From positions 136,394-200,393 of the forward strand of contig CAWFDF010000010.1 of assembly GCA_963814585.1 (NCBI GenBank): a stretch of 64,000 nt of DNA. Reading direction: 5' to 3'. Positions 5,255 through 23,612 of the stretch are shown piece by piece (position 1 is the stretch's first letter; each line of letters begins with the position of its first letter). Source of the DNA: an uncultured delta proteobacterium. Its GTDB lineage: Bacteria; Myxococcota; Myxococcia; Myxococcales; Anaeromyxobacteraceae. The position numbers and the translations under genes are program-made. The notes under the pieces are model-generated. The model made no database searches. It saw nothing but the letters and a program-made list of their open reading frames with translations, and was not told the DNA's origin.

Positions 5255-5950
5255 GTGGGCTATCTCCTGCTCGGCATCGTGGCCGGCCTCGCCGCCGTGG
5301 AGCGCAAGGGCTTCCTGCAAGCCATGCTCTCGCGCCCCATCGCGCTGGCCCCGCTCACCGGCCTGGCGCTGGGCGACCTGGCCGGCGGCCTGGCGGTGGC
5401 GGCGCCCCTGGAGCTGCTCTGGCTCGGCGCCGTCAACCTGGGCGCGGCCCTGCCGGTCCACGAGGCGCTCGGGACGGTGGTCATCGCCGGCGGCGCGGTG
5501 CTGGCCGGGCAGGAGCTCGGGACCGGCGTGACCCCGGCCACCGCGGTGGTGGCCCTGCTGGCCGGGGCGCCGCTGGCATTGCTGGGGCGGCGGGCCGATC
5601 GCTTCGTCGAGGTGGCCAACGAGCGGCTGTCGCTCTTCGCCGAGGAGACGCTGCGCCGCCACCACCCCCACGCCGCCGTCCGGCTCAACCTGGCCGGGCT
5701 GGCCATGCCTTTCGCCATCGCGGCGGCGCTGGCGCCTGCCGGTGCGCTGCTGGCCGCCGAGCTGGCGGTCCGGCTGCTCCGTGCCGCGCCCACCCTCGAC
5801 GGCCCGCTCCGCATCGGCTGGCTGGCCTTCTGCGGCCTGGCCTGCGCCGCGGGCGCCCGGGCGCTGCGGGCACGGCGGGCCACCGTCATCTTCGGCGTGA
5901 GCGCGGCGGCCGCCCTGCTCGTCGGCCTGGGACTGCGGGCGACGCCATGA
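5255..5950 (+). CDS. PTS mannose family EIIC component
   Basis: Hydrophobic; MLSRPI...LELLWLG...GAALP motifs; operon position. Confidence 0.85.
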   Translation: MGYLLLGIVAGLAAVERKGFLQAMLSRPIALAPLTGLALGDLAGGLAVAAPLELLWLGAVNLGAALPVHEALGTVVIAGGAVLAGQELGTGVTPATAVVALLAGAPLALLGRRADRFVEVANERLSLFAEETLRRHHPHAAVRLNLAGLAMPFAIAAALAPAGALLAAELAVRLLRAAPTLDGPLRIGWLAFCGLACAAGARALRARRATVIFGVSAAAALLVGLGLRATP

Positions 5951-6720
5951 CCATCCGCTTCCGCACCAGGGCCCATGTCTTCTGGCGCTGCCTCTTCCTG
6001 CAGGCGGCCTGGAACCGGCGCGGCATGCAGAACCTCGGCTTCGCCTATGCCATCGAGCCCGCGCTCGACGCGCTCTACGCCGATCCGGCCAGGCGGGAGG
6101 AGGCGCTGGCCCGCCACCTCGGCTTCTTCAACTGCCATCCCTACATGGCGGCCGCCATCCTCGGCGGCGCCATCCACCACGAGGAGCGGGTGGCCGCCGG
6201 GGAGGAGCCGGGGGCGGCGCCGCTCTCCTACAAGGCGACGCTGCAGGGGCCGCTGGCGGCGCTCGGGGACGGCTTCTTCTGGACCGCGCTGCGCCCGTTC
6301 TTCGGCGCCCTGGCGGCGCTGGGGGCGCTGGTGGCCGGCTGGCCGGCCATCGCGGTCGCGGTGGTGCTCTACAACCTCGTCCAGTTCTCCCTGCGGGCCG
6401 CCCTGTTCCGCGCGGGCTACCAGCAGGGCGACGCCGTGGTCGGGATCATCGCCCGGCTGGCGCTGCCCCGCGTGGCCGACCGGCTGCGGGCGGCCGGCGT
6501 GGCGCTCTGCGGCGCGGCGGCCGCGGCGGTGGCGCTGCAGGTCGGCGCCGGGCTGGCCGGGACCGGGGCGGCGGCGGCGTCCCTGGTGGTGGGCTCGGCG
6601 GCGGGCGCCGGCTACCTGGCGCTGGCCCGGGGCACGCCGCTCCTCCCGGCCGCCTACCTGGCGGCGGTGCTCGGGACCGTGGTGGCGGCCGTGGCCGGGT
6701 GGGACGGGGGGCCCTGGTGA
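5947..6720 (+). CDS. PTS mannose family EIID component
   Basis: LQAAWN..GMQNLGFAY, HLGFFNCHP, GPLAALGDGFFW. Confidence 0.92.
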   Translation: MTIRFRTRAHVFWRCLFLQAAWNRRGMQNLGFAYAIEPALDALYADPARREEALARHLGFFNCHPYMAAAILGGAIHHEERVAAGEEPGAAPLSYKATLQGPLAALGDGFFWTALRPFFGALAALGALVAGWPAIAVAVVLYNLVQFSLRAALFRAGYQQGDAVVGIIARLALPRVADRLRAAGVALCGAAAAAVALQVGAGLAGTGAAAASLVVGSAAGAGYLALARGTPLLPAAYLAAVLGTVVAAVAGWDGGPW

Positions 6721-11165: not shown

Positions 11166-12617
11166 ATGGCCGCAACCAGGAAGCCCGCGAAGCTCGAGTA
11201 CCAGGTCAAGGACATCACCCTCGCCGACTGGGGGCGCAAGGAGCTCGAGCTGGCGGAGAAGGAGATGCCCGGCCTGATGGCCATCCGCAAGCAGTACGGC
11301 AAGCGGAAGCCGCTCCGGGGGCAGCGGATCACCGGGTCGCTCCACATGACCATCCAGACCGGCGTGCTCATCGAGACGCTGGTGGCGCTCGGCGCCAGGG
11401 TGCGCTGGGCCTCGTGCAACATCTTCTCGACGCAGGACCACGCCGCGGCCGCCGTCGCCGTGGGCCCGAGGGGGACGGCCAAGGCGCCGGCCGGCGTGCC
11501 GGTCTTCGCCTGGAAGGGCGAGACCCTGGAGGAGTACTGGGAGTGCACCGACCGGGCCCTCGACTTCGGCAACGGCCTCGGGCCGACGCAGATCGTCGAT
11601 GACGGCGGCGACGCCACCCTGCTGATCCACAAGGGCGTGGAGTTCGAGGCGGCCGGCAAGGTCCCCAGGGCCGGCCCCGGCGACTCGGAGGAGTACGCCG
11701 TCATCCTCGGCCTGCTGGGCCGCACGCTCGAGGCCACGCCCAGGCGCTGGACCAAGGTGGCCGCCGCCTGCGCCGGCGTCACCGAGGAGACCACCACCGG
11801 CGTCCACCGGCTCTACGAGATGGAGAAGAAGGGGCAGCTGCTCTTCCCCGCCATCAACGTCAACGACTCGGTGACCAAGTCGAAGTTCGACAACCTCTAC
11901 GGCTGCCGCCACTCGCTGGTGGACGGCCTCAACCGCGCCACCGACGTGATGCTGGCCGGCAAGCTCTGCGTGGTGCTGGGCTACGGCGACGTGGGCAAGG
12001 GCTGCGCCCAGGCGCTCCGCGGGCAGGGGGCCCGGGTGGTGGTGACCGAGATCGACCCCATCAACGCGCTGCAGGCGTCGATGGAGGGGTACCAGGTGGT
12101 CCGGGTGGAGGACGTGGTCGCCAAGGCCGACGTCTTCGTCACCGCCACCGGCAACCTCGACGTGCTCACCGTCGACCACATGAGGAAGATGAAGGACTGC
12201 GCCATCGTCGGGAACATCGGCCACTTCGACAACGAGATCGACATGGCCGGCCTGAAGAAGGTCACCACGCGGGTGAACATCAAGCCGCAGTACGACGCCT
12301 TCGTCTTCCCGGACGGGCACCGCGTGCTGGTGCTGGCCGAGGGGCGACTCCTCAACCTGGGCTGCGCCACCGGCCACCCCTCCTTCGTGATGTCCAACTC
12401 GTTCACCAACCAGTCGCTGGCCCAGATCGAGCTGGCGGTGAACCGGAAGGCCTACGACAAGAAGGTCTACACGCTGCCCAAGCACCTCGACGAGAAGGTG
12501 GCGGCGCTCCACCTCGGCCAGATCGGGGCGCGGCTGACCCGGCTGACGCCGAAGCAGGCCGCCTACCTCGACATCCCGGTGAACGGGCCCTTCAAGCCGG
12601 ACAGCTACCGGTACTAG
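11166..12617 (+). CDS. ahcY: adenosylhomocysteinase
   Basis: [49 protein letters not shown]. Confidence 0.98.
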
Positions 12618-12687
12618 GCCAGAGGCCTGGGGGGCGACACCTCGACCCCGTGGCGGCGGACCGCGGCGGAGGGTAAAGTCCCCGCTC

Positions 12688-13470
12688 GTGCTCACCTTCA
12701 CCAACCTGCACAAGGCCTACGCCGCCACCGTCGCTGTCGAGGACCTCTCCCTGCGGGTGGAGCCGGGCGAGATCCTCGGCCTGCTCGGGCCGGGCGGCGC
12801 CGGCAAGTCGACCACGGTCCACCTCGCGTTCGGGTTGCTGCCCCCGGACTCCGGCACGGTCAGCGTCGACGGCCTGGGCCCGCCCACCGACTCCAGGGTG
12901 CGGCGCCACCTCGGGCTGGCGCCCCAGGCGCTGGCCCTCTACGCCGACCTCACCGGGGAGGGGAACCTGCGCTTCCTGGGGCGGGTCAACGGCCTGACCG
13001 GGCGAGCGCTCGACGCCCGCGTCGAGTGGGCGCTCGACTTCGCGGGGGTGACGGACCGCCGGCACGATCTGGTCGGCGCCTACTCCGGCGGCACGCAGCG
13101 CCGGCTCAACCTGGCGGCGGCGCTGCTGCACCAGCCCCAGGTGCTGCTCCTCGACGAGCCCGCCGCGGAGGTCGATCCCCGGTCGCGCGACGCCATCCTC
13201 GAGCGGGTCCTCGAGCTGAAGCGGGGCGGCCTGACGGTGCTCTACGCCACCCAGTCCGTGGAGGACGCGGAGCGGCTCTGCGACCGGGTGGCCATCCTGG
13301 ACCACGGCCGGGTCCTGGCGCTCGACAGCGTGCCCAGGCTGCTGCGTGCCCACGGCGCCGCGCCCACCCGGCCGAAGGCCGAGGCCCGGGCCGCGGAGAC
13401 CGACGTGGCGCGGGCCGACCTGGCGCAGGTCTTCACCAGCCTCACCGGCCGGAGGATGCAGGACGCCTGA
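12688..13470 (+). CDS. ABC transporter ATP-binding protein (ABC-2/DrrA-like), orphan with degenerate motifs
   Basis: GPGGAGKST, YSGG, LLLDEP; H-loop reads ATQ; no adjacent permease. Confidence 0.85.
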   Translation: MLTFTNLHKAYAATVAVEDLSLRVEPGEILGLLGPGGAGKSTTVHLAFGLLPPDSGTVSVDGLGPPTDSRVRRHLGLAPQALALYADLTGEGNLRFLGRVNGLTGRALDARVEWALDFAGVTDRRHDLVGAYSGGTQRRLNLAAALLHQPQVLLLDEPAAEVDPRSRDAILERVLELKRGGLTVLYATQSVEDAERLCDRVAILDHGRVLALDSVPRLLRAHGAAPTRPKAEARAAETDVARADLAQVFTSLTGRRMQDA

Positions 13471-13511
13471 GCGCTCCGGCGCGCGGCGGCACGGGGCACC
13501 AGGGAGACGCC

Positions 13512-14105
13512 ATGGCCACCCTCGAGTTCTTCTACGACTTCGTCTCTCCCTACAGCTACCTGGCCTCGACCCGCGTCGAGGCCATCGCCGCCCGCACCGG
13601 GGCCACGCTCCGCTGGCGGCCGTTCCTGCTGGGCGCGGTCCACAAGGCCACCGGCAACCGCGCGCCGCTGGAGGTGCCGGCCAAGGGGCGCCACATGTGG
13701 GTCGACCTGGACCGCTGGGCGGGGCGGCTCGGCGTCCCGCTGAGGCGCCCCGAGCCCTTCCCGTTCTCGTCCATGCTGGCGCTCCGGTCGGCCCTCGCCG
13801 CCGAGGCGGCCGGGAAGCTGGTGCCCTACACCCACGCCGTCTACCGGGCGCGCTGGGCCGACGGGCGGGACATCGCCGATCCCGCGGTGCTGGCGGCGGT
13901 GGCCTCCGAGGCCGGGCTCGACGGCGCCGCGGTGGTGGCGGCGGCGCCGGGCCACAAGGAGGCGCTGGCGAGGCAGACCCAGGAGGCCATCGATCGCGGC
14001 GCCTTCGGCGCGCCGGCCTGCTTCGTCGGCGACCAGCTCTTCGTCGGCAACGACCGGCTCGACTTCGTCGAGGAGGCGCTGCGGGCCGCGGCCCGCCCCA
14101 CCTGA
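13512..14105 (+). CDS. 2-hydroxychromene-2-carboxylate isomerase / DsbA-like (GST kappa) protein
   Basis: EFFYDFVSPYSYLA, RPFLLG, GAFGAP, FVGNDRL. Confidence 0.9.
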   Translation: MATLEFFYDFVSPYSYLASTRVEAIAARTGATLRWRPFLLGAVHKATGNRAPLEVPAKGRHMWVDLDRWAGRLGVPLRRPEPFPFSSMLALRSALAAEAAGKLVPYTHAVYRARWADGRDIADPAVLAAVASEAGLDGAAVVAAAPGHKEALARQTQEAIDRGAFGAPACFVGDQLFVGNDRLDFVEEALRAAARPT

Positions 14106-14148
14106 TCGTTTGTCCCTCGACCCGCGGTCGGGGTAGGTTCCGGCCCGC

Positions 14149-14982
14149 ATGTCGCTCCTCTCAGCCATCCTGCTCGGCATCATCCAGGCGGCCACCGAGT
14201 TCCTCCCGGTCTCCTCCACCGCCCACCTGCTGATCTTCGGTGAGCTGATGGGCCAGTCGCTGGAGGAGCCGCACTTCCGCGCCTTCGTGGCCATCATCCA
14301 GTCCGGCACGGCGCTGGCGGTGATCGTCTACTTCCGCCACGACATCTGGAAGATCCTGCGCGGCTCCATCGCCGCGCTGGCGCGGGGCACGCCGCTGGCC
14401 ACGCCGGAGGCCCGGCTCGGCTGGCTCATCGTCCTCGGCACCATCCCGGCCGCGGTGCTGGGCAAGCTGCTCGAGCGCCGCATCGAGGCGCTCGGCAACT
14501 GGGTCATCGCCGGATCGCTGGTCTTCCTCGGCGTGGTGCTGTTCGTCGCCGAGCGGCTGGCGCGCCACGTCCGGTCGGTCGAGTCGGTCGGCGTGAAGGA
14601 CGCCGTGCTGGTGGGCCTGGCGCAGGCCTGGGCCCTCATCCCCGGATCGTCGCGCTCCGGCAGCACGCTCACCATGGGGATGCTGCTCGGCTTCACGCGG
14701 GAGGCGGCCGCCCGCTTCTCCTTCCTGCTCTCCGTCCCCATCATCATCGCGGCGGGCGCCTACAAGCTCTGGAAGGAGCTGCCCCGGCTGGCTGGCGCGC
14801 CCGAATGGCAGCAGGCCACCGCGGTGGCCACCCTGGTCTCCTTCGCCGCCGGCTACCTGGTCATCGGCTGGCTGCTCGGCTGGCTCCGGACCCGCCCGAC
14901 CTACCTCTTCGTCGCCTGGCGCATCGCCGCCGGCCTCGCCGTCGCCATCCTCATCTCGGTGGGCGTGCTCCCGGCGTCATGA
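14149..14982 (+). CDS. uppP: undecaprenyl-diphosphate phosphatase
   Basis: [33 protein letters not shown]. Confidence 0.95.
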
Positions 14983-15569
14983 ACCTCGCCGAGCTGGAGG
15001 CCGCCCTGGCGGCCTGGCGGCCTCGGCCCTCACCCATCGAGCGGGTCCCGGCCCGGCACTGGCCGGAGGGGGGCTTCGGCGAGGCGGCCGTGCTGGTGCC
15101 GCTCCACGAGGAGGACGGGGTGGCCAGCGTGCTCCTGACGCTGCGGCGCACCGACCTGCGCCACCACGCCGGGCAGGTGAGCTTCCCGGGTGGCCGGCTC
15201 GATCCCGGCGAGGCGTCGCTGGACGCGGCGCTGCGCGAGGCGCGGGAGGAGGTCGGGCTGGACCCGTCGAGGGCGCGCATCCTGGGGCGGCTCTCGGAGA
15301 CCGTCGTGCTCCAGTCCGCCAATCGCTTGACGCCGTGGGTGGCTTCGGTGCCATATCCCTTCCCATACGCGGCGTCGCCGCGAGAGGTGGAGGCCATCTG
15401 GCACGTCCCGATTCCGGCGCTGCTGGCGCCCGGAGTCCACCGCACGCAGGTTCACCGGTTCTACGGGATCGACGTGGACGTTCACTACTACGAGGTCGAG
15501 GGCCGGACGATCTGGGGCGCCACGGCCCGGGTCCTCTCCGAGCTGATCGAGGTCTGGAGCGCGGGATGA
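14979..15569 (+). CDS. Nudix hydrolase, CoA pyrophosphatase family
   Basis: [16 protein letters not shown], Nudix box [17 protein letters not shown]. Confidence 0.92.
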
Positions 15570-16648
15570 AGATCTTTCCGGTGATCATGGCGGGCGGGTC
15601 GGGGACGCGGTTCTGGCCGATGTCTCGCCGGGCCAGGCCGAAGCAGTTCCTGCCGCTGGCGGGCGACCAGCCGCTGCTGACCGCCACCGTCCGCCGCCTG
15701 CCGCCGCTGGCGAAGCCGGCCGACACCTACGTGGTCTGCGGGCCGGCCCACGCCGCCGCCGCCAAGAAGCTGGTGAGGGAGCTGCCGGCGAGGAACTTCA
15801 TCGTCGAGCCGTGCGCGAGGAACACCGCGCCGTGCGTGGGGCTGGCCGCCCTCCACGTGGCGGCACGCCAGAAGCACGGCATCGTCGCCATGCTGCCGGC
15901 CGATCACCACATCGCCCGCCCCGAGGCCTTCCGCGAGGCCATCGCCGAGGCGGCCCGGCTGGCCGAGCAGGGGCACATCGTCACCATCGGGATCCGGCCC
16001 CACGCCCCGGAGACCGGCTACGGCTACCTGAAGGTTGGCGCCAGGCTGCCCGGCAAGGCCAAGGGACGCAGCCAGGCCCACAAGGTGGAGCGGTTCGTCG
16101 AGAAGCCCGACGTGGTGACCGCGGCCCGCTACCTCGCCGACGGCCACTACCTGTGGAACTCGGGCATCTTCGTCTTCCGCGCCGACGTCATCCTCGAGGA
16201 GATCCGGCGCGTCATGCCGGTGCTGGGTGAGCAGCTGGATGCCATCCAGCAGTCGATCGGCACCCCCGGCTACCAGCGGACCCTGGCGCGCGTCTTCCCC
16301 GACTGCCCCTCCATCTCCATCGACTACGGCGTCATGGAGAAGAGCCAGAAGATCGTGGTGGTGCCGGCCGACTTCGGCTGGAGCGACGTGGGCAGCTTCG
16401 CGGCGCTCCCCGAGGTGCGCCAGACCGACCACCTCGGCAACGTGGCCGAGGGCGACGCGCTGGTGATCGACGGCCGCAACAACGTGGTCATCGCCACCGG
16501 CGCCCGGCCGGTGGCGGTGGTGGGGCTCGACGACGTGGTGGTGGTCGACGCCGGCGACGCCATCCTGGTCTGCCGGAAGTCGCGGGCCCAGGACGTCCGC
16601 AAGGCGGTCGACGAGCTGGCGCGGCGCGGCCGCGACGAGGTGCTCTAG
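15566..16648 (+). CDS. manC: mannose-1-phosphate guanylyltransferase
   Basis: [47 protein letters not shown]. Confidence 0.95.
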
Positions 16649-18018
16649 TGTCCGGGGTGAATCCGGTCGTCTTCCGGGAGTACGACATCCGCGGCGTGGC
16701 GGGCGTCGACCTCACCGAGGAGACCGTGGGGCTGGTGGCGCGCGCGCTGGGCACCAGGGTCCGCGCCGCCGGCGGCCAGGTGGTGGTGGTGGGGCGGGAC
16801 GTCCGGCTCTCCAGCCCGGCTTTCCACGGCCAGGTGGTGGCGGGGCTCACCGCCACCGGCTGCGACGTGGTCGACCTCGGCGTGGTCCCGACGCCCCTGG
16901 TCTACTTCGCGGCGCAGACCATGGCCGTGGACGGGCTCTGCATGATCACCGGCTCGCACAACCCGGCCGACTACAACGGGATGAAGATCGGGGTGGGCCC
17001 GACCACGCTCTACGGCGAGGCCATCCAGGAGATCCTGCGGATGGTGCAGCAGGGCCGGTTCGCCAGCGGGCAGGGGAGGGTGACGGCGCACGACATCGTC
17101 GCCCCTTACCAGGACCGCGTGGTGGGGAACATCCAGCTCGGTCGCCGCCGGCTCAAGGTGGTCATCGACGCCGGCAACGGCACCGGCGGCGTCGCCGTGC
17201 CCATCTTCCAGCGGCTCGGCGTCGAGGTGGTCCCGCTCTTCATCGAGCCGGACGGCCGCTTCCCCAACCACCACCCCGACCCCACCGTGGAGAAGAACCT
17301 GGAGCCGCTGAAGCGAGCGGTGCTGGAGACGCGCGCCGACCTCGGCATCGCCTACGACGGCGACTCGGACCGGGTGGGCGCCGTCGACGAGAAGGGGCAG
17401 GTGCTGTGGGGCGACCAGCTCATGATCCTCTTCGCCCGCGCCATCCTCGCCGAGGTGCCGGGGGCGGCCATCGTCGCCGAGGTGAAGTGCTCCTTCACCC
17501 TCTACGACGACATCGCCAGGCGCGGCGGCCGCGGCATCATGTGGAAGGCCGGCCACTCCCTCATCAAGGCCAAGATGAAGGAGGAGCACGCCGAGCTGGC
17601 CGGCGAGATGAGCGGCCACATCTTCTTCGGGAACCGCTGGCTCGGCTTCGACGACGGCATCTACTCGTCGGCGCGCCTCGTCGAGCTGGTCAGCCGCACC
17701 GACCGGCCCCTGTCGACCCTGCTCGGTGACGTGCCGCGGACCTTCAGCACGCCGGAGCTGCGGGTCGACTGCCGGGAGGAGATCAAGTTCGAGGTGGTGC
17801 GCCGCGCCCAGGAGTTCTTCAAGCAGGGCTACCAGGCCATCACCGTCGATGGCGTGCGGGTGGTCTTCCCCGACGGCTGGGGGCTGGTGCGCGCCTCCAA
17901 CACGCAGCCCATCCTGGTGCTCCGCTTCGAGGCCGTCACCGAGCCGCGGCTGGCGGAGATCCGGAGGCTGGTCGAGGATCGGGTCGGCGCCATCATCGCG
18001 GAGCTCGGCGGTCCGTGA
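16648..18018 (+). CDS. phosphomannomutase/phosphoglucomutase (AlgC/ManB-like)
   Basis: FREYDIRG, TGSHNP, DGDSDR, GEMSGH, RASNTQP. Confidence 0.95.
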   Translation: MSGVNPVVFREYDIRGVAGVDLTEETVGLVARALGTRVRAAGGQVVVVGRDVRLSSPAFHGQVVAGLTATGCDVVDLGVVPTPLVYFAAQTMAVDGLCMITGSHNPADYNGMKIGVGPTTLYGEAIQEILRMVQQGRFASGQGRVTAHDIVAPYQDRVVGNIQLGRRRLKVVIDAGNGTGGVAVPIFQRLGVEVVPLFIEPDGRFPNHHPDPTVEKNLEPLKRAVLETRADLGIAYDGDSDRVGAVDEKGQVLWGDQLMILFARAILAEVPGAAIVAEVKCSFTLYDDIARRGGRGIMWKAGHSLIKAKMKEEHAELAGEMSGHIFFGNRWLGFDDGIYSSARLVELVSRTDRPLSTLLGDVPRTFSTPELRVDCREEIKFEVVRRAQEFFKQGYQAITVDGVRVVFPDGWGLVRASNTQPILVLRFEAVTEPRLAEIRRLVEDRVGAIIAELGGP

Positions 18019-18998
18019 CGGCCCGGCTCGCCCTCGGCGTCGACCTCGGCGGGACCAACGCCCGCGCGGCGCTGGTCGATCCGGCGAGCGGCGTGGTGGT
18101 GGCGGCCCACAAGGTGCGCCACGTCGAGCGGTCTCCGGAGGCGGTGGTGGCGACCATCGCCGCCGCGGTCCGCGAGGTGGCCAGGGCGGCCGGTGTCGAG
18201 GTGGCCGGGCTGGGGGCGGCCGGCGTCGGCGTGGCCGGCCAGTGCCTGGGCAGCACCGGCACCGTCCTCAACGCCCCCAACCTGGGCTGGCGCGACGTCT
18301 CGCTCGGCGAGCCGCTCCGCGCCGCGCTCGGGCTGGAGGTGCGGGTGGTCAACGACCTCTCGGCCGCGGCGTGGGGCGAGCTGCGCTTCGGGGCGGCGCG
18401 CGGTGTCGACGACGCGGTGCTGGTCTTCGTCGGCTCGGGCGTCGGCTCGGGCCTCATCCTCGGGGGCCGGCTCCACGAGGGTGGGCGGGGCGTGGCCGGG
18501 GAGCTCGGGCACATCAAGGTGGCGCCGCGCGGCGCGACGCCGCGGCGCTGCGGCTGCGGCGAGTGGGGTTGCCTCGAGGCCTACGCCGGCGGGATGAACC
18601 TGGCGGCGCGGCTGCGCGACGAGGTGGCCGCCGGGAAGGCCGGCGGCGTGCTGGCGGCGGCCGGCGGCGAGCCCTCCGCGCTGTCGGCCTCGGCGGTGGA
18701 GGCGGCCTACGCCGCCGGCGACCCCTACGCCCGGGAGCTCTGGGCCGAGGTCGGCGAGCTGATCGGCACCGCCTGCGCCAACGTGGTGACGCTGCTCAAC
18801 CCGCTGAGGCTCGTCCTCGGCGGCGGCGTGCTGCTGGGCTGCGGCAACCTGGAGCGGATCGTGCGCGCGCACGTCGCGGATCGCGCGCTGCGAGCGGCCC
18901 GGAGCGGACTCGAGGTGCGGCGCTCCCAGCTCGGCGACGACGCCGGCGTGGTGGGCGCGGCGCTCCTCGGCGCGGCGCGACACTCGCACCAGAGGTGA
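18015..18998 (+). CDS. ROK family sugar kinase (glucokinase-like)
   Basis: GVDLGGT, VVNDL, GELGH, CGCGEWGCLE zinc motif. Confidence 0.92.
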   Translation: MTARLALGVDLGGTNARAALVDPASGVVVAAHKVRHVERSPEAVVATIAAAVREVARAAGVEVAGLGAAGVGVAGQCLGSTGTVLNAPNLGWRDVSLGEPLRAALGLEVRVVNDLSAAAWGELRFGAARGVDDAVLVFVGSGVGSGLILGGRLHEGGRGVAGELGHIKVAPRGATPRRCGCGEWGCLEAYAGGMNLAARLRDEVAAGKAGGVLAAAGGEPSALSASAVEAAYAAGDPYARELWAEVGELIGTACANVVTLLNPLRLVLGGGVLLGCGNLERIVRAHVADRALRAARSGLEVRRSQLGDDAGVVGAALLGAARHSHQR

Positions 18999-19114
18999 GA
19001 TCGACCGCCCGATCCGATCACGGTCCGTGAAATCTGGCATCCGGAGGCGCTGGACCCATCCGGATCGTGCTGAGGGGAGCATGGATCGAGTGATCGATTT
19101 TCTCTTCGGCTTCC

Positions 19115-19143
19115 TTGACGGGATCGATCGCGCTTTGTAACGT
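19115..19143 (+). promoter_or_regulatory. sigma70-type promoter for the Lys-rich micro-ORF (and possibly rqcH)
   Basis: TTGACG (19115-19120), 17-bp spacer, TAACGT (19138-19143), in locally AT-richer DNA. Confidence 0.7.
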
Positions 19144-19205
19144 GCATCCACATTGTCCATTCGTGAGTCACTCATGAAGTGAATGGACGTTCCGAGGAGG
19201 GAACT

Positions 19206-19271
19206 ATGGCTGCCAAGAAGAAGGCCGTGAAGAAGGTTGCGAAGAAGAAGACCGCCAAGAAGAAGAAGTAG
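19206..19271 (+). CDS. 21-aa lysine-rich micro-protein MAAKKKAVKKVAKKKTAKKKK
   Basis: Below ORF-track cutoff. SD GAGGAGGG just upstream of ATG, promoter upstream, terminator downstream; 12 Lys, all AAG. Confidence 0.8.
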   Translation: MAAKKKAVKKVAKKKTAKKKK

Positions 19272-19298
19272 CGATCGGTTCAGCAGCAGAGTGGTGCC

Positions 19299-19329
19299 GC
19301 GGCCGCCTTCGGGCGGCCGCAGCTTTTTT
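19299..19329 (+). terminator. intrinsic terminator / possible attenuator
   Basis: GCGGCCGCC-TTCG-GGCGGCCGC 9-bp stem with a UUCG loop, followed by AGCTTTTTT. Confidence 0.85.
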
Positions 19330-19338
19330 GGGAGCCGC

Positions 19339-20790
19339 ATGTCGCTGACGGCGGTCGAGCTGGAGCTGGTGGTGGGGGAGCTGCAGGCGCTGCGCGGCGC
19401 GCGCGTCGACGCCGTGCGCGTCCACGCCGAGCGCGCCCTGACGCTGGAGCTGCACGGGCGCAGCGAGGCCGCGCTCCTGCTCCTCTGCGCCGAGCCCGAG
19501 GTGACCCGGCTCCACGTCAGCACCGTGCGCCCGGTCCAGCCCGCCAGCCCCTTCGCCTGGCAGGCACCGCTCCGCCAGGCGCTGGAGGGATCGCGGCTCG
19601 AGGCGCTGGAGCTGCAGGCCGGGGATCGGGTGGTGACGCTGCGCTTCGAGCGGGCCGGCGGCCGGGTCCAGCTGGTGGCGGAGCTGACCGGCCGCCACGG
19701 CAACCTCCTCCTCGTCGACGCCGGGGGCGTGGTCCGCTTCATGGCGTCGCGCGTCGCCGAGCCGGGGCGGCGCCTGGCCCCGGGCCTGCCCTGGACGCCG
19801 CCGGCGGCGCCGCGAGGTGAGCGGAGGGCCGGACCGCGCTTCGAGCCGGTGGCCGGCGCTTCCTTCCCCTGGTCCCTGGCGGTCGAGCGCCGCTACGCGG
19901 CGATCGAGGCGGAGCGGACGCTGGTCGAGGCGCGCCGGCGGCTGCGCGAGCCCTTGCGCGCGGCGCTGGCCCGGTCGAGGCGGGCGCTGGAGAGGCTGTC
20001 GGACGAGGCGGCCCGGGTGCCGGCGGCCGAGGCCGACCGGCGCGCCGGCGACCTGCTCAAGGCCAACCTCCAGGCCGTGACGCGCGGAGCCCGGGAGGTG
20101 ACGCTGACCGAGTGGACCGCCGACGGACCGGGCGAGGTGCGGGTGGCCCTCGACCCGGCGCTCACCCCGCGCCAGAACATGGAGCGCTTCTACCGGCGCT
20201 TCAAGCGGATCGCCGAGAGCGCGGCCCGGGTCGAGGCGCGGGCCGGCGAGGTCCGCGCCAGGCTCGAGGCCGTCGGGGCGCTGCTGGAGCGCGTCGACGG
20301 TGCGCCCCTGGAGGAGCTGCCGGCCATCGAGCGCGAGGCGAGGCGGCTGGCGGCCGGGCCACGGCCGGCGGCGAGGCCGCGCCGGCCGCGGGAGCAGGCC
20401 TCGCTGCCCTACCGGACCTTCCGCTCGGTGGCCGGCCTGGCCCTGCTGGTGGGGCGCGGCGCCGCCGAGAACGACCAGCTCACGCGGCGCGTGGCGCGCG
20501 GCAACGACCTCTGGCTCCACGCTCGCGGGCTGGCCGGCGCCCACGTGATCATCCGCCTCGGCGGCCGGGAGGCCGACCAGGAGTCCCTCCTCGACGCCGC
20601 CCACCTGGCGGTCCACTTCTCCGACGCCCGCGGGGAGCCGCAGGTGGAGGTGGCCTGCACGCGGGCCAAGTACGTCCGCAAGGGGCGCGGCGCGGCCCCC
20701 GGCGCCGTCACCTACAGCCAGGAGCGGATGCTCCACCTCCGCACCGAGCCGGCGCGGCTGGCCCGGTTGCTGGCCGAGGAGGCGCCTTGA
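19339..20790 (+). CDS. rqcH: NFACT family protein (RqcH/Rqc2/FbpA-like ribosome quality control factor)
   Basis: NFACT-N GDRVV and ELTGRHGNLLL, coiled region LDPALTPRQNMERFY, NFACT-R VGRGAAENDQLT...DLWLHARG..GAHV. Confidence 0.88.
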   Translation: MSLTAVELELVVGELQALRGARVDAVRVHAERALTLELHGRSEAALLLLCAEPEVTRLHVSTVRPVQPASPFAWQAPLRQALEGSRLEALELQAGDRVVTLRFERAGGRVQLVAELTGRHGNLLLVDAGGVVRFMASRVAEPGRRLAPGLPWTPPAAPRGERRAGPRFEPVAGASFPWSLAVERRYAAIEAERTLVEARRRLREPLRAALARSRRALERLSDEAARVPAAEADRRAGDLLKANLQAVTRGAREVTLTEWTADGPGEVRVALDPALTPRQNMERFYRRFKRIAESAARVEARAGEVRARLEAVGALLERVDGAPLEELPAIEREARRLAAGPRPAARPRRPREQASLPYRTFRSVAGLALLVGRGAAENDQLTRRVARGNDLWLHARGLAGAHVIIRLGGREADQESLLDAAHLAVHFSDARGEPQVEVACTRAKYVRKGRGAAPGAVTYSQERMLHLRTEPARLARLLAEEAP

Positions 20791-21584
20791 CGGTGGACCG
20801 GGCCGCCGCCCACGATGGCGGGACCGTGGACGCGCGCGAGGTGCACCGGCAGCTCCAGCTCTTCGACGGCCGCCACCTCGGCCGGGAGGAGCGGGTGGCG
20901 GGGGCGCGCCGGATCGCCGACGAGATGGCCGGCTCGCTGGGGGAGCCGGTCAAGCTCACCGTGCACGACAACCGCTCCACCATGGTCTCCTTCCGGCGTG
21001 TCGGCGGCGGCCTGCACGTTCGCCTGCACCACATGTTCCTCGAGGCGCCCGGCGAGGTGCTCCGGGCCCTGGCCGCCTTCGCCGGCACCGCCCGGGGCGC
21101 GACGGCGAGGCGCCGCGAGGCGAGCCGGCGCATCGACCGGTTCGTCCGCGACCGGCGGGACCGGATCGGCGCGCCGAGGGTGGGGCGGCTGCAGCCGCGC
21201 GGGCGGGCTCACGATCTCGGCGCCCTCTTCGACCGGCTCAACGCCAGCGAGTTCGGCGGCGCGGTGCAGGCGCGCATCGGATGGGGCGCGGTGCGGCCGG
21301 GGCGGCGCCGGCGCACCGTCAAGACCGGCGTCTACCTGCACGAGGCCCGGGCCATCCGCATCCACCCGACGCTGGACCGCCCCGAGGTGCCCGAGTTCTA
21401 CGTGGCGGCGGTGGTGTTCCACGAGATGCTCCACCAGGTGGTGCCGGTGCACGAGCGCAACGGCCGGCGGGTGGTCCACGGCGCCGAGTTCCGGCGCCGG
21501 GAGCGGGCCTACGCCGACTACCAGCGGTCGCGCGACTGGGAGAAGGCCCACCTCGGCCTGCTGCTCTCCTCGCCGGATCGCTGA
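20787..21584 (+). CDS. SprT-like zinc metalloprotease domain protein
   Basis: FHEMLH (HExxH), LFDRLN..F, HGAEFR; TTG start overlaps the rqcH stop (alternative GTG at 20826). Confidence 0.75.
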   Translation: MTVDRAAAHDGGTVDAREVHRQLQLFDGRHLGREERVAGARRIADEMAGSLGEPVKLTVHDNRSTMVSFRRVGGGLHVRLHHMFLEAPGEVLRALAAFAGTARGATARRREASRRIDRFVRDRRDRIGAPRVGRLQPRGRAHDLGALFDRLNASEFGGAVQARIGWGAVRPGRRRRTVKTGVYLHEARAIRIHPTLDRPEVPEFYVAAVVFHEMLHQVVPVHERNGRRVVHGAEFRRRERAYADYQRSRDWEKAHLGLLLSSPDR

Positions 21585-21659
21585 GCGTTCCGGCCGCGGG
21601 GAGCGGGTCCCCCGGGCCAGGTGCGGGCGTGGCCCCGGGGGGCATGGCATCATGCCTCG

Positions 21660-23612
21660 ATGCGACGCTGCGCCCCGCTCCTCCTGATCGCCGCCGCCGG
21701 GTGCCTGACGGCCCGCGGCACGGCCGACCAGCCGGTGATCACGACGGTCGAGCTGCGCGGCGTCCGGAGCGTCGACCGCTCGCAGCTCCGGGAGAAGCTG
21801 GCGACCCGCGCTTCCAGCTGTTTCATCACCTGCGACGTGGCCCACCTCGACCGGCACGAGCTGGCCGATGACGCGCTCCGCATCGCCGCCTTCTACAAGG
21901 AGCGCGGCCGCTACCTGACCGGGGTGCTGGAGCCGGAGGTCACCGACGACGGCGAGGGGCGGGTGCGGGTGCGGTTCGTGGTGAACGAGGGGCCGGAGGC
22001 GAAGGTGACGGGGCTCACCACGCCCGGGCTGGAGGCGGTGCCCGAGGCGGCCCGCGCCCTGGTCCGCCCCGCGCTGAGGGTCGGCTCCGTCTTCACCATG
22101 GAAGCCTACGACGGGATGCGCACGCAGCTGCTCGGCGCGCTCCGCTCCACCGGCTGGCCGCTGGCCGAGGTGAACCAGCGGGCACGCGTCCACCCGGACC
22201 TCCAGCGGGTCGACGTCACCTACGCCATCTCCCCGGGCCCCCGGCTCAGGTTCGGAGCGCTGCAGGTGACCGGCACGGCCCAGGTGCCGCCCGGCAAGGT
22301 GACGGAGCAGGCGACCCTGGAGCTGGAGCGAGGCGCCCTCTTCGACGAGCGCGCCCTGGTGCGCGCCCAGACCCGGGTCTTCAACCTGGGCGTCTTCGCC
22401 AGCGCCCGCATCGCCACCGGCCACCCCGACCTCGAGCGCGGGGAGGTGCCGCTGGTGATGAGCGTCCAGGAGGCTCCCTTCCAGACCCTGCGGGTCGGGC
22501 CGGGGATCGCCTTCCAGACCACCCGCTGGGAGGCGCAAGGCCTGGCCACCTACACCCACCGCAACTTCCTCGGCGACCTGCGCAAGCTCCAGGTCCACCT
22601 CCAGGCCGGCTACGCCTGGATCCCCACGCCGTTCAGCCCCGACCAGCAGGGCCTGGTCGGCCGGCTGACGGCCTCCCTCGACCAGCCGGGCACCTTCGGC
22701 CCGCGGGTCGACCTCGCCACCCAGGTGGGCGGGGAGCGATCCATCGAGCAAGGCTACGCCTACTGGGCGGTGCGGGCCCGGGTGGGGACGCCGCTGCGGC
22801 TCGCCAGCCGGTGGAGGCTCCTGCCCACCTACAACATCGAGAACTACTGGGTCGACGCCGGGTTCGACCCGGCCGACGGATCCACGCCGCCGCAGCTCCA
22901 GAACTGCAACGCCAGCCGGATCTGCCTGCTCTCCTACTTCGAGCAGCGGATCACCTGGGACGGGCGCGACGACCCGGTCGACACGCACCGCGGCCTGGCG
23001 GCGGGGTTGACGGTGCAGGAGGGGTTCCGGATCGGCTCCAACGGCTACGACTACCTGCGCGTGTCGCCCGAGGTGAGCTTCTACGTCCCGCTCGGCTGGC
23101 GGACCGTGCTGGCCGGCCGCCTCCGCGTCGGCGGGCTGGTGCCCATCAACGAGACCGGCCCCGCCTCCATCGTCGCCCTCTTCACCTCCGGCGGCTCCAC
23201 CACCGTCCGCGGCTACGGCACGCAGCGGCTCTCGCCCATGGTCCTGCAGGACGACCTGTGGGTGCCGACCGGCGGGAACGGGGTGGTGGAGCTCTCCCTG
23301 GAGCTCCGCCAGAAGCTGAGCGGGGCGCTCGGCGCGGTCTTCTTCGTGGACGTGGGCAACGTCTCGGAAGCCTCTGGCCAGCAGAAGGAGTGGCTGAATG
23401 CGCTCACCCTGTCGAAGCTCCAACCCACGGCCGGGCTGGGCCTGCGCTACCGCACGCCGTTCGGGCCGGTCCGGATCGACGTCGGGTTCCGCCTGCCCAC
23501 CGACCTCCGCCCCGACATCCCCTTCGAGGATCGCTTCCCGGCCGTTCCCGGCAGCTCCGGCCACAGCGAGCCGCTGATGGCGTTCCACCTGACCCTGGGC
23601 GAGGCCTACTGA
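21660..23612 (+). CDS. tamA: Omp85 family outer membrane protein, TamA/TamL-like
   Basis: POTRA-like region, SGGSTTVRGY, GLGLRYRTPFGPVRID, C-terminal LGEAY; N-terminal lipobox AAGC; directly upstream of tamB. Confidence 0.85.
   Translation: MRRCAPLLLIAAAGCLTARGTADQPVITTVELRGVRSVDRSQLREKLATRASSCFITCDVAHLDRHELADDALRIAAFYKERGRYLTGVLEPEVTDDGEGRVRVRFVVNEGPEAKVTGLTTPGLEAVPEAARALVRPALRVGSVFTMEAYDGMRTQLLGALRSTGWPLAEVNQRARVHPDLQRVDVTYAISPGPRLRFGALQVTGTAQVPPGKVTEQATLELERGALFDERALVRAQTRVFNLGVFASARIATGHPDLERGEVPLVMSVQEAPFQTLRVGPGIAFQTTRWEAQGLATYTHRNFLGDLRKLQVHLQAGYAWIPTPFSPDQQGLVGRLTASLDQPGTFGPRVDLATQVGGERSIEQGYAYWAVRARVGTPLRLASRWRLLPTYNIENYWVDAGFDPADGSTPPQLQNCNASRICLLSYFEQRITWDGRDDPVDTHRGLAAGLTVQEGFRIGSNGYDYLRVSPEVSFYVPLGWRTVLAGRLRVGGLVPINETGPASIVALFTSGGSTTVRGYGTQRLSPMVLQDDLWVPTGGNGVVELSLELRQKLSGALGAVFFVDVGNVSEASGQQKEWLNALTLSKLQPTAGLGLRYRTPFGPVRIDVGFRLPTDLRPDIPFEDRFPAVPGSSGHSEPLMAFHLTLGEAY

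Follow-up and report, generated by a model that had tools for sequence, protein, structure and literature searches.

Results

A lysine-rich micro-gene with its own expression signals

The window, by which we mean the whole 64,000-nucleotide stretch of DNA analysed, carries at 19206-19271 on the forward strand a 21-aa open reading frame (ORF), running from ATG to TAG, with 12 lysines and no aspartate or glutamate (2,211 Da and a charge of about +12 after presumed removal of the initiator methionine). Upstream lies a ROK-family sugar kinase gene (18015-18998, forward; Pfam ROK, 3e-60) that ends a GMP/PMM/ROK run and is a constant neighbour in part of the family only, the upstream genes being different in other genera. 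Downstream lies a gene of the NFACT/RqcH ribosome quality-control family, here called rqcH (19339-20790, forward; Pfam NFACT_N, 6e-47, and NFACT-R), whose product matches NCBIfam RqcH_arch at 5.5e-31, under that model's cut-off. The micro-ORF is preceded by the Shine-Dalgarno (SD) sequence GAGGAGGG at 19194-19201, and its lysine fraction of 0.57 is the highest among 305 SD-ATG ORF matches of 10 to 49 aa in the 4.34-Mb genome, the runner-up having 0.40. It is followed by an intrinsic terminator (19299-19329, forward), in which a 9-bp GC stem with a UUCG loop (19299-19320) runs into a U run; the scan returned one terminator against 0.2 expected from shuffles. The rqcH start is 10 nt beyond the U run, and no separate rqcH promoter was seen. 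The ORF, its lysine content and lack of acidic residues, its SD and its UUCG terminator are all as the original prediction described them. That prediction also remarked that all 12 lysines are encoded by AAG, and the count is correct; we dropped it as a signal because AAG accounts for 99.0% of lysine codons in the genome's long ORFs, which gives 12 out of 12 a probability of 0.89.

A GATC-rich region (18999-19143; 8 GATC in 145 bp) ends in a putative promoter of the housekeeping-sigma type (19115-19143, forward), with a -35 element TTGACG, a 17-bp spacer and a -10 element TAACGT. The pattern is present in 52 of 52 loci of the family (shuffles: mean 1.9, maximum 6) and also precedes ORFs of the same genome that we take, from their N-termini, to be housekeeping genes. 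The earlier description of this promoter as near-consensus holds less well, in that it matches only 8 of the 12 bases of the E. coli consensus and was missed by an E. coli-type promoter scan, which called no site. Transcription is predicted to start near 19150. The putative leader would fold into two hairpins, P1 (19155-19188, forward) and P2 (19189-19204, forward), the latter holding the SD in its loop and 3′ arm. Across 30 loci chosen because they share this leader type, P1 is paired in 97.9% of cells, with two-sided change in 3 of its 8 pairs, and P2 in 98.7% of cells, with two-sided change in 1 of 5 pairs; together these give 98.2% of cells and 4 of 13 pairs, figures that are inflated by relatedness. 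P1 probably stabilises the mRNA. An anti-SD-like run lies immediately 5′ of the SD in 46 of 52 loci, a count that has no shuffle control.

Conservation beside rqcH and a continuum of lengths

With RqcH as the anchor, we collected the DNA 5′ of rqcH from 102 genomes of the phylum, a hand-picked and non-random sample with one locus per genome, from which rqcH matches without a known start were excluded; none of the conclusions depends on the unpublished genome G153. A locus was scored positive if a lysine-rich, acid-poor ORF ended at most 700 nt from rqcH. Such a Lys/Ala-rich ORF immediately precedes rqcH in 69 of the 102 genomes and is missing from the other 33. Its presence varies by family: 25 of 25 genomes in f1, 28 of 37 in f6, 4 of 5 in f3, 2 of 13 in f4 and 0 of 9 in f12, while the other ten families together contribute 10 of 13. 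Family f1 we infer to be the Anaeromyxobacteraceae, whose members are the closest named relatives. The conservation check that the original prediction proposed for the rqcH junction in relatives thus came out in its favour, with the ORF intact in all 25 genomes of this family. The length of the product changes with family, from 18 to 42 aa in the Anaeromyxobacteraceae and 27 to 82 aa in f6 to about 200 aa in f3 and 129 to 230 aa in f14.

Within the Anaeromyxobacteraceae, merging identical loci and including named records, which we assigned by title or identity, gave 52 loci; L093, which did not pass the start filter, is not among them, nor are loci on short contigs. The 52 loci encode 41 different peptides of 18 to 42 aa, from all of which D, E, N, Q, H, F, W, Y, C and L are missing. 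Between the ATG and the terminator, AAG triplets number 662 in frame versus 9 out of frame, and the stop codons are TAG (34) or TAA (18) and never TGA, which accounts for 61% of stops genome-wide. The core of the terminator stem is kept in 52 of 52 loci, 25 to 51 nt past the stop. The window peptide is identical in 8 genomes of the same family, and the DNA of the micro-ORF is unchanged across the 6 genomes compared. Taken over all orthologues, the pooled composition is K 35%, A 32%, T 12%, P 5%, R 5% and D+E 1%. No residue is conserved past the first five, and the repeats begin at residue 2 to 5 in 78 of 78 loci; counted as basic plus other residues, their units are 2+3 (151), 2+2 (141) and 3+2 (122), the window peptide being mostly 3+2. 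The gap between ORF and rqcH is enlarged in some genomes by insertions of 100 to 500 nt; those at L006 and L041 (about 100 to 180 nt, between terminator and rqcH) have the look of inverted repeats and are possibly REP- or MITE-like.

The micro-ORF is a real and conserved gene. It is very probably translated, and its product is probably very abundant. Since they share a locus and form a continuum from 18 to 230 aa, the micro-peptide and the long H1-like repeat proteins can be regarded as one gene, and the 21-mer is, judged in this way, what this Lys/Ala-repeat gene of myxobacteria has become at its shortest, by contraction. Orthology of the long and short forms is proposed from position, start motif and composition, not from alignable sequence.

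Database searches returned little. Of 10 orthologous peptides, none had an exact match in a 15-billion collection, and homologue searches gave one match for a 79-mer and one, at E = 7, for a 41-mer. The ESM Atlas contains both orthologous peptides queried and RefSeq calls a 240-bp gene, so the longer forms are not wholly unannotated. A scan of metagenome contigs with the start motif returned at least 120 stretches, and the DNA of 80 was examined. Of the 82 matches listed in these 80, 39 were closed lysine-rich ORFs of 12 to 34 aa in DNA of 40 to 69% GC with varied neighbours; because the pattern itself selects for lysine starts, the scan speaks to breadth and not to frequency. A 12- to 13-aa oligolysine ORF ending in histidine recurs on metagenome contigs (L230, L242, L244, L250, L256, L259, L272, L281-L284 and L292), and in 11 of these 12 loci its neighbours include a hydantoinase B gene, a MerR gene or both. 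Two lysine-rich micro-ORFs stand in tandem within 200 to 330 nt in L251 and L290. Proteins of 68 to 71 aa that start with the same lysine-rich M-A-T/A-K-K tail occur in L203, L204, L208, L209, L210, L246 and L289, and we presume from their look that they are histone-fold-like.

The Myxococcus xanthus orthologue and its transcript levels

In M. xanthus the corresponding gene is MXAN_6302 (MXAN_RS30530; 240 bp, 79 aa), which lies 97 bp 5′ of rqcH (MXAN_6301). The C-terminal 79 residues of ABF86753.1 (Q1CYU6) of strain DK1622 are the same, without a difference, as the 79-aa ORF of locus L124, and this identity, the length and the 97-bp gap indicate that ABF86753.1 is MXAN_6302. The gene has been labelled 'hypothetical', 'conserved hypothetical' (131 aa) and, in an older RefSeq table and an Atlas cluster, 'excinuclease ABC subunit A'; the 131-aa start of ABF86753.1 is probably mis-called. 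Compared with the window peptide, the predicted product is longer and has a short Ala/Pro/acidic tail, and the two have locus position and composition in common.

Transcript data are available for growth and for development. In the growth libraries (Table S1B of PMC9548883), MXAN_6302 is at 11,892 to 22,197 FPKM in 10 libraries and takes fourth place in a table apparently sorted by level, with ssrA, rnpB and rplL above it. Its mean of 16,706 FPKM compares with 17,845 for rplL, and it exceeds rqcH, at 23 to 31 FPKM, by 429- to 772-fold (PMC9548883). From 0 to 2 h it rises 1.08-fold versus a median of 2.1-fold for 16 ribosomal protein genes, with which it correlates at r = 0.49 (p = 0.15, indicative only, as the replicates are non-independent); in the same libraries the ribosomal protein genes correlate among themselves at r = 0.73 to 0.99 (PMC9548883). 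In development, as tabulated for 0 to 96 h in PMC6791715, its levels are 6,425, 5,344, 6,253, 5,480, 2,303, 1,521 and 1,387 RPKM, that is, 5,300 to 6,400 RPKM through 0 to 24 h and a fall of about 4.6-fold by 96 h. In that dataset rplL rises late and correlates with MXAN_6302 at r = -0.67, and the ratio of MXAN_6302 to rqcH, about 135-175 at 0 h, has dropped to 15-26 at 72 to 96 h, the rqcH counts being below the paper's own filter. MXAN_6302 is among the most highly transcribed genes of M. xanthus and stands outside the ribosomal regulon.

A predation supplement lists MXAN_6302 once, in its FPKM sheet, and not in its differential-expression sheets. Other M. xanthus sources added little. The supplements of PMC10313047, in which no protein table surfaced, yielded no proteomic evidence for it, those of PMC8844925 held no match to rqcH or Q1CYU6 terms, and it is absent from the searched files of PMC11980068. 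The accessible parts of PMC11257542 and of the preprint 10.1101/2025.09.11.675593 do not mention the gene, and the literature searched, in which few subscription journals are covered, contained no description of MXAN_6302, MXAN_RS30530 or Q1CYU6 or of the link to rqcH.

For the genus of the window itself, near-identical metatranscriptome contigs among those listed cover 19123-19291 (X1), 19172-19328 (X2) and 19176-19338 (X3) at a depth of about 3. The comparison covered 4 of 23 runs; the runs were picked via this stretch, contain fewer than 0.2 of its words and may include DNA; X1 begins 27 nt 5′ of the predicted transcription start, and most of the depth in the bin belongs to lysine-rich genes of other organisms. 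We take these contigs as a weak hint of a transcript in this genus.

A GATC cluster at the promoter

Nowhere else in the genome are GATC sites as dense as the 8 in 18999-19143; the three clusters that come closest, with 7 each, are in coding sequence. The promoter region has 6 to 8 GATC in all 10 loci of the same genus, and a GATC lies within the -35/-10 spacer in 50 of the 52 family loci and is missing from Myxococcus-like loci. Dam (PF02086) was not found in the window's genome (92% complete) or in any of 8 genomes of the genus, and PF02086 scores above its cut-off in 6 of 41 family genomes; as the domain is not conserved, we rejected Dam as the reason for the cluster. The one PF01555 methylase found has no assigned specificity. 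The array is possibly an operator for some regulator.

Comparison with known basic proteins

The closest resemblance is to the stand-alone H1-like repeat proteins, chlamydial Hc2 (HctB), Bordetella BpH1 and their Burkholderia counterparts (NF038053), which likewise consist of Lys/Ala/Thr/Val/Pro repeats with few or no acidic residues. According to the accessible part of PMC2848022, Hc2 is 165 to 237 aa long, is built of pentamers of two basic residues and three of Ala, Val, Thr or Pro, binds both DNA and RNA and varies with the number of its repeats, and BpH1 is dispensable and expressed by growth phase. The rqcH-linked family is similar in that its size (18 to 230 aa, with pooled D+E of about 1%) would vary by in-frame gain and loss of repeats and, as with BpH1, in its growth-phase expression. 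Its commonest unit is two basic plus three other residues, with 2+2 and 3+2 close behind. The family differs from the Hc2/BpH1 type in the late-development fall of its transcript and in its fixed place beside rqcH, and the 21 aa of the window contrast with 165 to 237 for Hc2 and 149 to 231 for the Burkholderia proteins; only the orthologues of 194 to 230 aa fall within the Hc2 range. Model scores are low: the 21-mer matches none of PF07382 (cut-off 40), NF038052 (cut-off 135) and NF038053 (cut-off 80), and in each case 4 of 11 orthologues do so, at 17 to 27 bits, at 15 to 19 bits and at up to 31.2 bits (L114), respectively. Overall the orthologues score 13 to 31 bits versus cut-offs of 40, 80 and 135, and the long ones match only H1-like or other K/A-repeat models, all under cut-off. 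Such low-complexity matches reflect composition and not descent. The gene resembles the Hc2/BpH1 type in the composition and repeat behaviour of its predicted product and is not a member by model scores. Among its ESM Atlas neighbours are HC2-bearing clusters (20 to 21% of members).

Chlamydial Hc1 and Pseudomonas AlgP and PhaF carry a lysine-rich tail on a folded or dimerising N-terminal domain, whereas the rqcH-linked family is tail only, with no domain match. The likeness to Hc1 and to the AlgP and PhaF tails lies in a disordered Lys/Ala/Pro polycation, reported in the available portions of PMC11894788 and PMC2848022 to bind DNA; the C-terminal DNA-binding tails of AlgP and PhaF are of the KPAA type (PMC11894788). 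In the window's genome, one query found no histone-fold gene, and four matches to the HU/IHF family are present. A second H1-like tail of about 70 aa, rich in Lys/Arg/Ala, forms the C-terminus of an ORF on the minus strand of contig C14 near 382500. An Arg/Lys-rich ORF of 43 aa on the minus strand of contig C8 near 547500 is preceded by a strong SD and followed by a hairpin, and may encode another unannotated small basic protein. The H1-like domain of myxobacterial CarD is another DNA-binding Lys/Ala/Pro polycation tail. Very short, very basic and highly expressed proteins that gene callers easily miss are also found in ribosomes (eL41/eS32, bTHX and bS22), and these have a near-fixed length and conserved arginine or aromatic positions, neither of which the rqcH-linked family has. 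The 21-mer itself has no PDB match at E<=10 and no Pfam or NCBIfam match, a weak search for a low-complexity query of 21 aa.

Discussion

The micro-gene beside rqcH raises the question of what so short and so basic a product would do. The original prediction offered a minimal nucleoid-condensing peptide, a ribosome-associated peptide and a leader peptide. We regard as probable that the product is an abundant, disordered Lys/Ala polycation resembling an H1 tail that would bind, and may condense, DNA or RNA; of the three options the condensing peptide is the one favoured, because the same-locus orthologues are Lys/Ala/Thr/Pro repeat proteins of 58 to 230 aa.

A role directed at the ribosome or at RNA, in which rRNA or mRNA is the ligand and the peptide is either a small ribosomal protein of the eL41, bTHX or bS22 kind or a counter-ion for RNA in bulk, modulating translation, would make the link to rqcH functional. 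The age of that linkage (69 of 102 genomes), a transcript on a par with rplL and the report that RNA binding is stronger for Hc2 than for Hc1, and that Hc2 is a repressor of translation (PMC2848022, in the part available), all point this way. A pocket-filling ribosomal protein, however, would not be expected to range from 18 to 230 aa with nothing conserved past the first five residues; the 21-mer has no PDB match and the 79-mer only one to a histone tail (E = 0.96), and MXAN_6302 is uncoupled from the ribosomal protein genes in growth (r = 0.49, p = 0.15) and runs opposite to rplL during development (r = -0.67). With lengths that differ 13-fold and such expression, a stoichiometric ribosomal role is unlikely, and the ribosomal peptide of the original prediction is disfavoured. 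Loose RNA binding is less affected by this evidence, and we consider the RNA-directed explanation as a whole unlikely. Partnership with polyphosphate or another polyanion condensate, in which the peptide, like the AlgP tail, coats polyphosphate granules and ties them to the nucleoid, fits the composition, and the accessible part of PMC11894788 describes both the AlgP KPAA-repeat tail and nucleoid-embedded polyphosphate granules in M. xanthus. Against it, AlgP has a structured N-terminal domain that the Lys/Ala family lacks, the neighbourhood examined holds no ppk or granule gene, and expression peaks in growth and early development, not in late starvation; we judge this partnership quite improbable.

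The locus also has the layout of an attenuator, a short ORF rich in one amino acid followed by a terminator before a gene, so that slow or failed translation of poly-lysine could alter read-through and tune ribosome rescue through rqcH. The 10-nt spacing to rqcH, the lack of a visible rqcH promoter and the developmental shift in the ratio of the two transcripts (about 135-175 to 15-26) suit such a leader, and it is because of this shift that we keep it in view, although the rqcH counts behind it failed the filter of PMC6791715. Folds of naked RNA break the terminator (probability <0.5) in 5 of 52 loci, and in the window its probability is 0.08 in a slightly longer fold versus 0.91 when the 3′ end is 3 nt shorter, a result that is not robust. 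Over the 52 loci, however, the mean terminator probability is 0.886 for real and 0.883 for codon-shuffled ORFs, which reveals no selected antiterminator, and with a ribosome covering the ORF it is 1.0 at every one of the 52. The 13-fold variation in ORF length, the insertions of 100 to 500 nt before rqcH, the 33 of 102 rqcH loci without an ORF and the presence of rqcH within 600 nt of just 1 of the 39 similar metagenomic micro-ORFs among the matches listed also speak against a leader, which we hold to be very improbable. That the abundant RNA is itself functional, or that the ORF is untranslated, would accord with its structured leader and with the invariance of its fourfold sites, none of 8 varying among 6 genomes of the genus compared with 32 to 37% in genes of the rplA/rplJ/rplL region (P of about 0.03 to 0.05) and 66% in rqcH. 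Conserved structure is nonetheless confined to the leader and terminator, 18900-19450 has no Rfam match at E<=1, and 41 different peptides in 52 loci retain the frame, the SD, the Lys/Ala composition and TAA or TAG stops, which leaves a small RNA extremely improbable. Least credible is an exported cationic antimicrobial or predation peptide. The high positive charge and the predatory habit of the phylum would suit one, but the peptide has no signal peptide, aromatic residue or leucine, no transporter gene is its neighbour, and MXAN_6302 is absent from the differential-expression sheets of the predation supplement.

Under the H1-tail reading, the stand-alone gene would be expressed constitutively and very strongly from a unit of about 180 nt comprising a 5′ hairpin, a strong SD, the ORF and the terminator. 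Translation and loss of the initiator methionine would yield a 20-residue peptide of charge +12, which may bind phosphate backbones without sequence specificity, neutralise their charge and bridge DNA duplexes, and probably also RNA and polyphosphate, thereby aiding nucleoid compaction or phase separation. Repeat number, from 18 to 230 aa, would set valency and leave function unchanged, and rqcH would be a long-standing neighbour whose low expression comes from read-through or from a promoter of its own, and not the target of the peptide. Some observations count against this reading. The late fall of the transcript is opposite to the behaviour of Hc1 and Hc2, which act at the condensed stage, and the transcript levels are those of a 79-aa orthologue from a different family. 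Four HU/IHF-family matches are already present in the genome, and a 20-mer may be too weak a binder to condense DNA unless it oligomerises. Sequence alone does not distinguish DNA, RNA, the ribosome and polyphosphate as the main ligand.

New here are the length continuum, the M. xanthus orthologue with its expression data and the GATC cluster at the promoter. We speculate, tentatively, that many prokaryotes make a hidden class of ribosomally synthesised oligolysine peptides, 12 to 45 aa long, which belong to the most abundant products of their genes, act as encoded equivalents of polyamines or H1 tails for chromatin and RNA, and escape both gene callers and tryptic proteomics; such peptides and the long H1-like proteins would be a single gene that grows and shrinks, and MXAN_6302 would then be an overlooked major component of the M. 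xanthus nucleoid that declines with sporulation. Trypsin would reduce such a peptide to fragments too small for standard proteomics, and in the literature searched one of the most transcribed protein genes of M. xanthus appears unstudied. The genetics of M. xanthus make the gene testable, which bears on similar micro-genes in uncultured lineages that are not testable in their own hosts, and the natural series from 18 to 230 aa at a single locus raises the question of how short a functional H1 tail may be.
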